Assembly: GCA_040757555.1 (NCBI GenBank)
Contig: JBFLWN010000007.1
Location: 9,404 to 73,403 of the forward strand
Reading direction: 5' to 3'
Source of the DNA: Patescibacteria group bacterium
Lineage (GTDB): Bacteria > Patescibacteriota > Minisyncoccia > UBA6257 > GWB1-50-10
DNA length: 64,000 bases
Below, one piece after another: positions 9,210 through 64,000 of the stretch. Numbering within the stretch: position 1 is the stretch's first letter; every line of letters begins with the position of its first letter. Below the pieces are notes generated by a model. It was given only the letters and a program-made list of their open reading frames with translations, had not been told where the DNA came from and made no database searches. Both the position numbers and the translations under genes were made by a program.

Positions 9210-9284
9210 GCCACCTTAGCTCAGTGGTAGAGCAACGCTTTTGTAAAGCGTGGGTCCTCGGTTCAAATCCGAGAGGTGGCTCCA
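9210..9284 (+). tRNA. tRNA-Thr (anticodon TGT)
   Basis: Cloverleaf folds by hand: acceptor gccacct/aggtggc, anticodon loop tttgtaa, T-loop ttcaaat, CCA encoded. Confidence 0.85.
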
Positions 9285-9341
9285 AATTGCACCGCACTAT
9301 TTTTTCCTGTATTGTAATAAAGTTCTTTTCAGAGAATTATT

Positions 9342-9414
9342 GCCAATGTAGCTCAGTTGGTAGAGCAACTCCATGGTAAGGAGTAGGTCATCGGTTCAAA
9401 TCCGATCATTGGCT
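9342..9414 (+). tRNA. tRNA-Thr (anticodon GGT)
   Basis: Acceptor gccaatg/cattggc, anticodon stem actcc/ggagt, loop atggtaa, T-loop ttcaaat. Confidence 0.8.
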
Positions 9415-9477
9415 CAAAATATAAATACTTTACTTTTTTCCTGTTTTGTTTTAAGTTTACAGTATTACAAAATTTGT

Positions 9478-9648
9478 ATGGCACAAGGGAAATTTACTGA
9501 AAATTTAATAAAACTTCGCTGCACGAAGTGTAAGCGCACAAACTATCTCAAACACAAGAACAGAAAGACAGTTGAGCGAAAGATTGAATTTAAGAAGTAT
9601 TGCGAATGGTGCAAGGCGCACACTCCACACAAGGAATCAAAAAAATAG
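9478..9648 (+). CDS. rpmG: 50S ribosomal protein L33
   Basis: MAQGKFTENLIKLRCTKCKRTNYLKHKNRKTVERKIEFKKYCEWCKAHTPHKE is a typical L33 zinc ribbon. The ORF-track start 9373 overlaps the tRNA, so the start is trimmed to the ATG at 9478. Confidence 0.85.
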   Translation: MAQGKFTENLIKLRCTKCKRTNYLKHKNRKTVERKIEFKKYCEWCKAHTPHKESKK

Positions 9649-9652
9649 GAAA

Positions 9653-9680
9653 TTCCCCGAGAGGGGATTTTCTTTTTATT
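9653..9680 (+). terminator. Intrinsic terminator after rpmG
   Basis: ttcccc-gaga-gggga hairpin followed by tttctttttatt. Confidence 0.6.
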
Positions 9681-9708
9681 GAGATTTTAGTATAAAATAA
9701 AGGACGTT

Positions 9709-9779
9709 GGGAGCTTAGTTAAGTGGCATAACTGCGGTCTCCAAAACCGCTGTCGGGGGTTCGATTCCCTCAGCTCCCG
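9709..9779 (+). tRNA. tRNA-Trp (anticodon CCA)
   Basis: Acceptor gggagct/agctccc, anticodon loop ctccaaa, T-loop ttcgatt. Confidence 0.85.
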
Positions 9780-61506: not shown

Positions 61507-61785
61507 TTACTTTGATTTTTTTACCGGTGTTTTGTGGTTCTTTTCTGTCGCCTTCTTTACCACTTTCTTTTCTTTTTTCGGTTGTATTTTTGATTGACGT
61601 ACTTTGAATCGTTCAACACGTCCCGCAGTGTCGATAAGTTGTTGTGATCCGGTATAAAATGGGTGACAGTGACTGCAAATGTCTACCTTGATATCTTCTT
61701 TTGTGTCTCCAAAGGAAAATGTGTGCCCGCATCCGCAGGTGATCTTTGCTTTTGGAAAGTATTTTGGATGAATGTCCTTTTTCAT
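61507..61785 (-). CDS. rpmE: 50S ribosomal protein L31
   Basis: [13 protein letters not shown]...[10 protein letters not shown] zinc-binding motifs. Confidence 0.9.
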
Positions 61786-61886: not shown

Positions 61887-61916
61887 TTGACAATCATCCA
61901 CGGCTTTCTCTATACT
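61887..61916 (+). promoter_or_regulatory. Candidate rRNA promoter TTGACA-18-TATACT
   Basis: Consensus -35 and near-consensus -10, ~140 nt upstream of the 16S 5' end. Confidence 0.35.
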
Positions 61917-62265
61917 GTTACTTGCCATAAAAAAATGGCTTCGGATTCGGAATATCGAATGTAGATTGAAAAACGAATAGCATATATATTCCAATATATT
62001 GCAAGCATATAGCATACTAAATAATAAACATTTTTAGTTGCCCTAATTTTCATTTCTTTAGAGGATTTGATCCTGGTCCAGGATGAACGCTGGCGGCGTG
62101 GATAAGGCATGCAAGTCGAACGGACTTTATGTGGAGCACAAGGAAATTATTTTTTTGATTTTCTTGTGCTCTATGTAAAGTTAGTGGCGAACGAGTTAGT
62201 AACACCTTGGTATGTACCCCAGAGTCAGGCATAATTCGCCGAAAGGCGAACTAATTCCTGATGGT

Positions 62266-62582
62266 CCCAGCTTCACTTTTGGTTTTAATTCTTTAAAATT
62301 ATTATTATGCATATAGTTTATGTACTTCGGCATAGTATAAGGGGTACATTATATATCGGTCAGACTTCGAATTTAGAAAAGCGTTTGAAGTCACATAATA
62401 ATAATTTAAATAAATCAACTCGACGGAATGTCGGTCATTGGATTTTTGTCTATGCGGAAGCATATTATTCAAAATCAGACGCGATACAGAGGGAGTTGAA
62501 ACTAAAACAACACGGCAGTAGTAAACGTGAATTACTGAAACGAATTCACAAAAGCATAATTGAAATCAAAAGTGAGGCTGGG
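62266..62582 (+). mobile_element. Intervening sequence in the 16S V2 region, closed by the cccagc/gctggg stem and carrying a GIY-YIG ORF
   Basis: Conserved 16S sequence stops after CTAATTCCTGATGG and resumes at TAAAGACGCAAGTCGC; complementary hexamers flank the insert. Confidence 0.55.
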
Positions 62583-62585
62583 TAA
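62307..62585 (+). CDS. GIY-YIG family nuclease (putative homing endonuclease) encoded inside the 16S intervening sequence
   Basis: IVYVLRHSIRGTLYIGQTSNLEKRLKSHN is a GIY...YIG motif with the downstream R/E/N residues; 92 aa. Confidence 0.7.
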   Translation: MHIVYVLRHSIRGTLYIGQTSNLEKRLKSHNNNLNKSTRRNVGHWIFVYAEAYYSKSDAIQRELKLKQHGSSKRELLKRIHKSIIEIKSEAG

Positions 62586-64000
62586 AGACGCAAGTCGCTT
62601 TGGGATCGGCCTAGGCCCGATCAGCTAGTTGGTGAGGTAATAGCTCACCAAGGCTACGACCGGTAGGGGAGGTGAGAGCCTGTTCCCCAACGAGGAAACT
62701 GAGATACGGTTCCTACTCCTACGGGAGGCAGCAGTCGAGAATATTCCACAATGGGCGAAAGCCTGATGGAGCGACGCCGCGTGGAGGATGAAGCATTTCG
62801 GTGTGTAAACTCCTTTTCCGCCGGAGAAAGTCGCAAGACTGATAGTACGGCGGGAATAAGTGGCTGCAAACTTCGTGCCAGCAGCCGCGGTAATACGAAG
62901 GCCACAAGCGTTATCCGGATTTATTGGGCGTAAAGGGCGCGTAGGGGGTCCGATGCGTCTTCTGTAAAAGCTCACCGCTCAACGGTGAATATGCAGAAGA
63001 TACGATCGGACTAGAAGGTGTTAGAGGCAGATGGAACGCACGGTGTAGGGGTGAAATCCGTTGATATCGTGCGGAACACCAAAGGCGAAGGCATTCTGCT
63101 GGGACATTCTTGACCCTGAGGCGCGAAAGCGTGGGGAGCAAAAAGGATTAGATACCCTTGTAGTCCACGCCCTAAACGATGCTGACTAGCCGTCTCGAGT
63201 ATCGACCCTCGGGGTGGCGTAGCTAACGCGTTAAGTCAGCCGCCTGGGAAGTACGAGCGCAAGCTTAAAACTCAAAGGAATAGACGGGGACTCGCACAAG
63301 TGGTGGAGCATGTGGTTTAATTCGACGGTAAACGAGACACCTCACCAGGGCTTGAAATGCGTATGAAAGCCAGCCGAAAGGCGGGCCCTCTTCTCACGAA
63401 GACATGCGCACAGGTGCTGCATGGTTGCCGTCAGCTCGTGCCGTGAGGCGTTCCCTTAAGTGGGGTAACGAGCGCAACCCCTACTCTTTGTTATAAGTGT
63501 CAGAGAGGACTGCCGTCGCATAGACGGAGGAAGGTGGGGATGACGTCAAATCAGCATGGCCCTTTGATGCCCTGGGCTACACACATGCTACAATGGCCAA
63601 TACAGCGGGTTGCCAAGCCGCAAGGCGGAGCTAATCCCATAAAATTGGCCCCAGTTCAGATTGAGGGCTGCAACTCGCCCTCATGAAGTCGGAATCACTA
63701 GTAATCGCGGATCAGCACGCCGCGGTGAATACGTTCTCGAGTCCTGTACTCACCGCCCGTCAAGTCAGCGGAGCTGGGAGTAGGTGAAGCCCCGTGAAAT
63801 GTGCCGTTGGCACATCAGCCAAAGGCCTATCTCACGGGGTCAGCCTAAGCTCGGTGATGAGGACTAAGTCGTAACAAGGCACGGGTAGCGGAAGCTGCTC
63901 GTGGATCAATTAAATTAAGTCGATTGCAAGTCGTAAAAAGTGAGGCGCCGAATCGTATTGTTGGCGAATCTCTGTTTGCGATTTGCACTGTGCGCATACG

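Follow-up and report, generated by a model that had tools for sequence, protein, structure and literature searches.

The window analyzed here, a 64,000-nucleotide (nt) stretch of the genome of a Patescibacteria group bacterium, contains a full-length bacterial 16S ribosomal RNA (rRNA) gene on the forward strand (positions 62055–63916; Rfam SSU_rRNA_bacteria, RF00177, model positions 1–1533, 1398.8 bits), which is interrupted by one large insertion carrying an open reading frame (ORF) for a small GIY-YIG protein. The insertion, 296 nt of which are unaligned to the Rfam model, lies inside a single hairpin bounded on the 5′ side by ...CUAAUUCCUGAUGGU and on the 3′ side by UAAAGACGCAAGUCGC. Hand alignment to Escherichia coli rrsH identifies the interrupted hairpin as helix h9 of the V2 region, at about E. 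coli positions 184–193, and bears out the original prediction, made from the sequence alone, of a protein-coding intervening sequence (IVS) in V2 of a 16S gene of the candidate phyla radiation (CPR) type; ORF-bearing 16S insertions in CPR bacteria are on record in the literature (PMC11270868). A promoter-like site on the forward strand, TTGACA-18-TATACT (61887–61916; a consensus-scan pattern match only, 11 of 12 positions), is located ~140 nt upstream of the 16S start, with the divergent L31 gene ending at 61785, and is a candidate for the rRNA promoter from which the whole unit would be transcribed. The nearest genome locus to the window (L001) belongs to Candidatus Paceibacter, and its 16S flank is 95% identical.

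The insert is a 317-bp unit (62266–62582, forward strand), to which the initial estimate of about 305 nt must be corrected. It comprises a left arm, CCCAGCTTCACTTTTGGTTTTAATT (62266–62290), a 16-nt leader (62291–62306), the body of the ORF, and a right arm, AATTGAAATCAAAAGTGAGGCTGGG (62558–62582), which pairs with the left arm. The complementary bracket reported originally is thus real and longer than noted. The boundaries are set by this inverted repeat, and two close relatives (L103 and L104) agree with them, carrying other hairpins between identical flanks, ...GAT(A/G)GT and TAAAGACGCAAG; the insert stands in place of helix h9 outright. The predicted RNA fold of the insert region (−95.4 kcal/mol; z = −8.4 versus shuffled sequences) is closed by the 25-bp stem, and each of the three DNA-level mismatches between the arms is a G·U pair when read as sense RNA. 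The ORF encodes 92 amino acids (aa) (62307–62585, forward strand), and the right arm doubles as its codons 85–92 (...EIKSEAG). Of the claimed overlap between the last codons and the resumed rRNA, only the stop codon stands (TAA, 62583–62585, supplied by the host's conserved UAAAG), the last eight codons being the insert's own right arm.

The leader is A/T-rich and, as read from the sequence, devoid of a Shine–Dalgarno motif, which fits the way in which the host appears to initiate translation, namely without Shine–Dalgarno pairing. The 3′ end of the window's 16S gene (63895–63916) reads GGATCAATTAAATT, in which the anti-Shine–Dalgarno CCUCC was not found, and a Shine–Dalgarno-like motif (GGAG, GAGG, or AGGA at −18 to −5) precedes 0 of 49 window ORFs of at least 120 aa, compared with 5 of 49 in a control window. 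CCUCC is also missing from the 16S genes of L031 and L070 and is kept in those of L030 and L090. We could establish no promoter belonging to the insert itself, the search yielding only a weak match (9 of 12 positions, 62272–62299) that, by eye, is not kept in the left ends of other elements. A hairpin masking the start codon (62285–62309 with 62394–418) was considered and rejected, as it is not conserved across elements. A scan of the 64-kb window with an arm-derived pattern (stem of at least 13 bp) detected no further copies of the cassette.

The product of the ORF matches the Pfam GIY-YIG profile PF01541 (E = 4.8e-19; 68.9 bits, the cutoff being 22.6; profile positions 1–74 of 78) over residues 1–72, as the original reading of the ORF had it. 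Residues Y5, Y16, G18, R26, H30, and E63, which from knowledge of the family we take to occupy the canonical GIY-YIG motif positions, are invariant in all 18 sequences when the 17 close homologs (52% to 79% identity, 86–114 aa) are included, and a C-terminal motif, LKQHGSSKxELLKRI, is common to, and specific for, the CPR clade of the protein. Outside the arm, codons show a ratio of nonsynonymous to synonymous substitution rates (dN/dS) of 0.10–0.20. Purifying selection acts on the ORF, and the nuclease is for this reason taken to be translated. In the AlphaFold model (mean predicted local distance difference test score, pLDDT, of 81), secondary structure elements follow the order strand-strand-helix-helix-strand-helix and are succeeded by one long C-terminal helix (residues 71–90), a predicted fold consistent with the GIY-YIG catalytic domain. 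The nearest solved structures by sequence and fold are the UPF0213 proteins BH0048 and EF2693, and Slx1 (27% to 34% identity): profile searches matched the UPF0213 structures 1ZG2 (E = 2.9e-7) and 1YWL (E = 2.8e-5), and 1ZG2 was also the top Foldseek match of the model, with the catalytic domain of I-TevI and the N-terminal domain of UvrC ranking behind UPF0213 and Slx1. By its single-domain size of ~90–100 aa and its significant similarity, the protein belongs with UPF0213/YhbQ. A separate DNA-binding domain with a linker, as in I-TevI, is absent from the 92 residues, which leave no room for it beside the catalytic domain. We infer from sequence and model a catalytic-domain-only, UPF0213/Slx1-like nuclease.

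To follow the element beyond the window, we collected loci encoding relatives of the protein (21 from species-representative genomes and 80 from metagenome contigs, the taxonomy of the latter being inferred) and placed them against E. coli rRNA and Rfam. The closer relatives (~48% to 79% identity) are nearly all encoded inside rRNA genes, with the ORF always on the rRNA-sense strand. In addition to 16S h9, where the cassette occurs in the window, in L001, and in 16 other loci (16 of these sequences being distinct), it lies inside the gene for 23S rRNA at E. coli positions 130–177 (L024–26 and L035), ~280 (L067), ~530–668 (helix 25 region; L071 and L089), and 1704–1770 (taken as the helix 63, or H63, region; ~50 loci, including L002 from Yanofskybacteria and L003 from Saccharibacteria), the 23S helix names denoting E. 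coli coordinates derived from BLAST flanks and not full structural alignments. Outside rRNA, one copy lies exactly between two protein-coding genes (L076), and two occupy intergenic DNA, with tRNA genes a few hundred nt away (L057 and L078). At every site, the ORF is flanked by the end consensus (C)CCAGCnnCAC(T)TTTGG ... CCAAA(A)GTGnnGCTGG(G), the sub-types of which include CCAGCCGTAGATTTA... and CCCTCC.... An inverted-repeat search that used no pattern recovered terminal inverted repeats of 15–27 bp, all sharing that outer sequence, from 50 of the 57 distinct CPR elements, and homologous units measure 302–331 bp, most frequently 317. The original prediction had assigned cccagc/gctggg to a host helix tipped by the insert. 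These ends recur at no fewer than 5 other locations (23S H9, ~280, H25, and H63 regions, and intergenic DNA). Since no native stem sequence can be common to rRNA helices that are unrelated and to intergenic DNA, the arms, with cccagc/gctggg among them, belong to the insert. Nor is arm conservation a by-product of coding for ...KSEAG, since the right arm follows the stop codon in many clades.

Several individual loci deserve mention. In L024–26, the ORF of the 23S cassette reads on into the rRNA, yielding 114 aa. The L003 contig (CAZQWL010000081.1) is labeled Candidatus Saccharibacteria and carries its cassette in 23S at 1704–1770; Saccharibacteria rRNA genes were reported as an exception without insertions in a 2024 survey (PMC11270868). 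The 16S gene of L045 (107–3217) contains the h9 cassette and several further large insertions and is pieced together by Rfam across ~3 kb. In L036 (1150–1533), an ORF-bearing cassette and a mini-hairpin flank AGGAAAGTCCGAAC, a sequence similar to the P4 strand of RNase P RNA, and on this one motif the host gene may be that for RNase P RNA; Rfam returned no match at E ≤ 0.1 for the hosts at L036, L068, L076, and L102.

More distant relatives of the protein (L004–L021; 37% to 53% identity) are stand-alone GIY-YIG proteins from Bacteroidota, Zixibacteria, Gammaproteobacteria, Terriglobia, Patescibacteria, and others. In 15 of these 18 loci, a tRNA gene on the same strand directly adjoins the ORF; several ORF 3′ ends overlap the 5′ end of the tRNA, the identity of which varies. 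Inverted repeats around these genes were not detected (scores 5–10).

The closing stem is selected as RNA on the rRNA-sense strand. Across 16 distinct h9 elements, RNAalifold identified it as the sole conserved structure, with 21 pairs, 12 of which show compensatory double changes and almost none of which are broken; no conserved internal RNA structure was found in these inserts. When 45 distinct arm pairs from all sites were compared, the mismatches included 34 G·U on the sense strand against 5 A·C (binomial p = 2e-6), an A·C on the rRNA-sense strand being equivalent to a G·U on the opposite strand. With the recurrent U·G position next to CCAGC left out, the counts were 18 G·U against 5 A·C (p = 0.011). 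These p-values are indicative only, the sequences being related.

The same ends also enclose hairpins that have no ORF. An arm-derived pattern scan of the loci, which was restricted to stems of 13 bp or longer and fixes part of the consensus by construction, returned 16 ORF-less hairpins of 34–143 nt with CCAGC...GCTGG ends at several 23S positions; chance matches with stems of this length are very unlikely. Four of them reside in one 23S gene (L066: 465–568, 614–718, 2897–2997, and 4263–4386), two in L084 (824–923 and 2203–2303), and one each in L079 (492–593), L087 (1166–1252), L101 (1267–1366), and L068 (143–178), and a further one adjoins an ORF-bearing copy (L089: 2277–2395), these copies being 34–124 nt long. 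Arms of ORF-less hairpins are closer to those of the ORF-bearing copy resident in the same locus than to others (on average 2.4 versus 4.7 differences per 14 nt across six loci; permutation P = 0.012).

The hairpin at h9 is itself subject to turnover in close relatives. Found via the neighboring L31 gene, L103 and L104 share the gene order of the window (L31, L25, SLT-domain protein) and 90% to 95% 16S identity and carry unrelated ORF-less hairpins in the h9 position, where they are enclosed by identical flanks, ...CTAATTCCTGATAGT and TAAAGACGCAAGTCGC...; the hairpin of L104 (1649–1726, minus strand of the locus) is 92 nt long with arms CCCCGCTTTCGCT..., and that of L103 (1277–1369, minus strand) is 107 nt long with arms CCCCGTGAGATAA.... 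Helix h9 is a hot spot of hairpin turnover in the lineage of the window. Empty H63 sites (23S 1704–1770) have a hairpin of 14–21 nt between the same flanks, and together with the h9 hairpins of L103 and L104, these cassette-less hairpins indicate that the unit stands in for a whole native hairpin.

In a neighbor-joining tree, arm sub-types group by protein clade and not by place of insertion. The 23S-H9 group falls inside the 16S-h9 clade, whose CCCAGCTTCACTTTTGG arms it retains, the H63 element of L051 and the 23S ~280 element of L067 are sisters, and L060 and L090 represent separate lineages also located at 16S h9. The arms have therefore moved jointly with the ORF, and on more than one occasion.

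Our favored explanation, to which we assign a probability of roughly 60%, is that the insert is an IVS of the RNase III-excised type that rarely moves and carries a functional nuclease gene; the fallback reading of the original prediction, an excised IVS or minimal mobile insertion, thus proves the best one. In this scheme, the hairpin-bounded 317-bp cassette, having replaced h9, would be transcribed within the pre-16S RNA, and its two 25-nt arms would pair as a long perfect-or-wobble duplex through which the two parts of the 16S domain stay joined. On the model of IVSs in bacterial rRNA, the duplex would be the substrate of RNase III-type excision, such that the mature 16S rRNA would be without the insert and probably in two pieces. 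The hairpin loop would serve as the mRNA for the 92-aa nuclease, which would act on DNA, probably recognizing structure or the conserved ends instead of a long specific site, and would thereby maintain or occasionally move the cassette.

Several observations weigh against this explanation. In the clade of the window, the stop codon lies just outside the stem, so that a cut within the stem would produce a non-stop mRNA; translation may proceed from the uncut precursor, or the cut may fall elsewhere. No gene or signature of RNase III was found in the 64-kb window, a result that is uninformative for a piece of this size, and the 92-aa protein has no obvious DNA-binding module. Target-site duplications are not visible, the 8-nt flanks of every element containing no direct repeats. 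Element identity exceeds rRNA-flank identity, as recent horizontal transfer would have it, in only 3 of 253 H63 pairs and each time by less than 1 point, and in the 16S set a larger excess appears only in pairs with L001, the flank of which is cut at 130 nt. Host 16S identity rises with protein identity (Spearman 0.40, Mantel P = 0.007), which together with the lack of such excess makes any mobility ancient or rare; movement is rare and descent mostly vertical. Long vertical persistence under purifying selection is not predicted by a simple selfish homing-endonuclease cycle, and the frequencies of the various forms are biased, the loci having been gathered via ORF homology and the ORF-less copies via the arm-derived pattern. 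With the protein reduced to a catalytic domain nearer to UPF0213/Slx1 than to I-TevI and with recent transfer not seen, the label “homing-endonuclease-like” was an overstatement. What survives of the original interpretation as a whole is the coding, non-intron IVS, and what does not is the host-helix bracket and this label.

A bolder form of the proposal, which we put forward tentatively and regard as possible rather than probable, is that the ends and the ~90-aa GIY-YIG nuclease constitute an undescribed two-part mobile system of CPR bacteria, in which the autonomous cassette and ORF-less mini-hairpins would replace native hairpins of stable-RNA genes (16S, 23S, and possibly RNase P RNA). The nuclease would recognize hairpin or cruciform ends and not a long target, and the ends would double as an RNA excision signal that makes insertion harmless.

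The GIY-YIG protein could instead be a housekeeping structure-specific nuclease that serves the host and is not a mobility factor, the hairpin parking and releasing its mRNA inside rRNA; its substrates might be, for example, R-loops or branched DNA where transcription of rRNA and tRNA genes is heavy, and it would be expressed by riding stable-RNA transcripts. Purifying selection (dN/dS 0.1–0.2) across hosts with 16S flanks only 71% to 84% identical to that of the window would be expected of such a gene, as would undetectable recent transfer and the correlation of host and protein identities. The nearest fold of known function, Slx1, is a structure-specific nuclease, and the adjacency of distant relatives from many phyla to same-strand tRNA genes (15 of 18 loci) makes co-expression with stable RNA look like an old property of the family. 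This alternative is nevertheless unlikely given the patchy presence of the gene, with the close relatives L103 and L104 having no ORF at h9, and its rarity, the published survey counting just 30 GIY-YIG ORFs in rRNA insertions among hundreds of CPR rRNA genes (PMC11270868). Furthermore, the unit changed sites together with its arms, and the same ends occur on ORF-less copies.

It is quite improbable that the 317 nt stay in the mature 16S rRNA as an enlarged surface h9, with the ORF translated from the precursor or the mature rRNA. Removal from transcripts has been reported for CPR rRNA insertions as a class (PMC11270868, citing Brown et al.), and closure of a helix alone would not require a perfect, conserved duplex of 20–26 bp kept at every site, including intergenic ones. 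Such retention would be compatible with the variability of h9, of which relatives tolerate versions of 92–107 nt, with the stop codon outside the stem, which fits translation of an uncut transcript, and with the Salmonella IVS that remains unprocessed in an rnc mutant with no detected effect on ribosome function (PMC8708148).

A DNA transposon, in which the arms would be terminal inverted repeats recognized in DNA form by a transposase-like GIY-YIG nuclease and the ORF-less hairpins would be non-autonomous derivatives akin to miniature inverted-repeat transposable elements (MITEs), would account for conserved ends at unrelated sites, for their covariation with the protein clade, for ORF-less copies with matching ends at the same locus, and for the intergenic copies. 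Autonomous and ORF-less copies do share terminal inverted repeats, as insertion sequence (IS)/MITE pairs do; conservation of the ends independent of strand was not found, and the 34 sense-strand G·U against 5 A·C imply selection on RNA pairing and not on the identity of two DNA ends. In addition, target-site duplications were not seen, the ORF is on the rRNA-sense strand in every rRNA copy, near-identical copies at different sites of one locus do not occur, and our literature search found no GIY-YIG transposase, all of which renders a transposon very improbable. A self-splicing group I or II intron with a homing endonuclease gene, suggested by position in a CPR rRNA gene, where such introns are common (PMC11270868), is effectively refuted, as the original prediction had anticipated in arguing from size against an ORF-bearing group I intron: Rfam, searched permissively with 62200–62650, returned no intron family at E ≤ 10 (its matches being 16S and three at chance level), the insert has only ~40 nt of noncoding sequence besides the ORF, no conserved inner structure, and no ribozyme core (P3–P9), the site is a variable helix and not the conserved core, and all published GIY-YIG rRNA insertions are non-intron (PMC11270868).

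Among known systems, the GIY-YIG-coding rRNA inserts of CPR bacteria are an already published kind, of which the element described here is a new member. Tsurumaki et al. (2024, J Bacteriol; PMC11270868) reported PF01541 ORFs in CPR insertions, 15 in 16S and 15 in 23S genes, none of them in intron-like insertions; they lay in rRNA regions of lower conservation. The insert of the window shares their host group and gene type, lying in a CPR rRNA gene, encoding a PF01541 ORF, and having no group I/II similarity (E ≤ 10); what is added here are the shared conserved hairpin ends, the joint site moves, and the ORF-less counterparts. Inverted repeats, hairpins, and palindromes are not mentioned in the text of that survey (PMC11270868), and our literature search, which did not cover Brown et al. 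2015 itself, found no description of the cassette architecture, that is, of shared ends and gene recurring at many rRNA sites. The search likewise turned up nothing relevant on GIY-YIG genes adjoining tRNA genes, on what UPF0213 proteins do, or on inverted repeats at GIY-YIG elements.

RNase III-excised IVSs, such as those of Salmonella 23S and alpha-proteobacterial 5′ 23S, are similar in being stem-loops in a variable helix with a long closing duplex, and RNase III cuts their extra stem, leaving fragmented, functional rRNA (PMC8708148). The extra stem-loop of the window, located at the variable helix h9, has a duplex of 25 bp, in keeping with the stem of about two helical turns or more of RNase III-type IVSs, and two of the 23S regions occupied by the family, E. 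coli 130–177 and ~530–668 (around helix 25), are classical IVS regions. Classical IVSs are 100–200 nt long and mostly noncoding, whereas the insert of the window is 317 nt long, encodes a putative nuclease, and has a stem whose sequence is kept from site to site and from host to host. IVSs in 16S rRNA occur in Clostridium paradoxum, Helicobacter canis, and Caedibacter, and the IVSs of Leptospira and others contain a conserved ORF, 23S_rRNA_IVP (PF05635). The latter is likewise a sense-oriented protein gene within an rRNA IVS, but its product is a four-helix bundle unrelated to the GIY-YIG nuclease.

I-TevI of the phage T4 td group I intron resembles the present case in that a GIY-YIG catalytic domain is encoded in an intervening sequence; the window insert has no ribozyme, its protein has neither the linker nor the DNA-binding domain, and the structural match is weak (E = 0.025, 22% identity). 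The best sequence and fold matches, the UPF0213/YhbQ proteins (1ZG2 and 1YWL) and eukaryotic Slx1, agree with the protein of the window in its single-domain size of ~90–100 aa, yet Slx1 needs Slx4 and has a RING domain, and the CPR clade has its own C-terminal motif. Autonomous and non-autonomous repeats coexist in IS/MITE pairs, in Correia elements, which are cut by RNase III in transcripts, and in repetitive extragenic palindromes (REPs) with REP-associated tyrosine transposases (RAYTs). These systems similarly combine a nuclease gene with inverted ends and many short, ORF-less palindromic copies; the CPR elements differ from them in the nuclease family, in that target duplications are not seen, and in that copies are found almost only in stable-RNA genes and in one orientation.

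Some further features of the window were recorded. The V1 (h6) hairpin of its 16S gene (62124–62181) has a 24-bp stem and 44 nt unaligned versus 8 in the Rfam model and is a second enlarged variable helix within the gene. The spacer downstream of 16S contains AAAAAGTGAGGCGCC (63937–63949), which has 11 nt in common with the right arm of the cassette; no complementary partner was found within the window, which ends at 64000, and the BLAST alignment of the window to L104 runs through this stretch. Overall, 45 of the 49 long ORFs of the window are on the forward strand, the G+C content is 38.9%, and three tRNA genes are located at 9210–9779.

The published survey could not say how GIY-YIG-bearing inserts spread and set them apart from homing (PMC11270868). 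The hairpin ends, the joint switches of site, and the ORF-less copies lead to a concrete, testable model in which the nuclease would act on the ends and the ends would provide the RNase III signal. The insert lengthens V2 by ~300 nt and, should it be excised without ligation, the bacterium would possess a two-piece 16S rRNA, with consequences for amplicon length, primer-based surveys, rRNA depletion, and the mapping of rRNA reads. Should the nuclease serve the host, it would offer the first functional lead for the UPF0213 family, members of which elsewhere adjoin tRNA genes.

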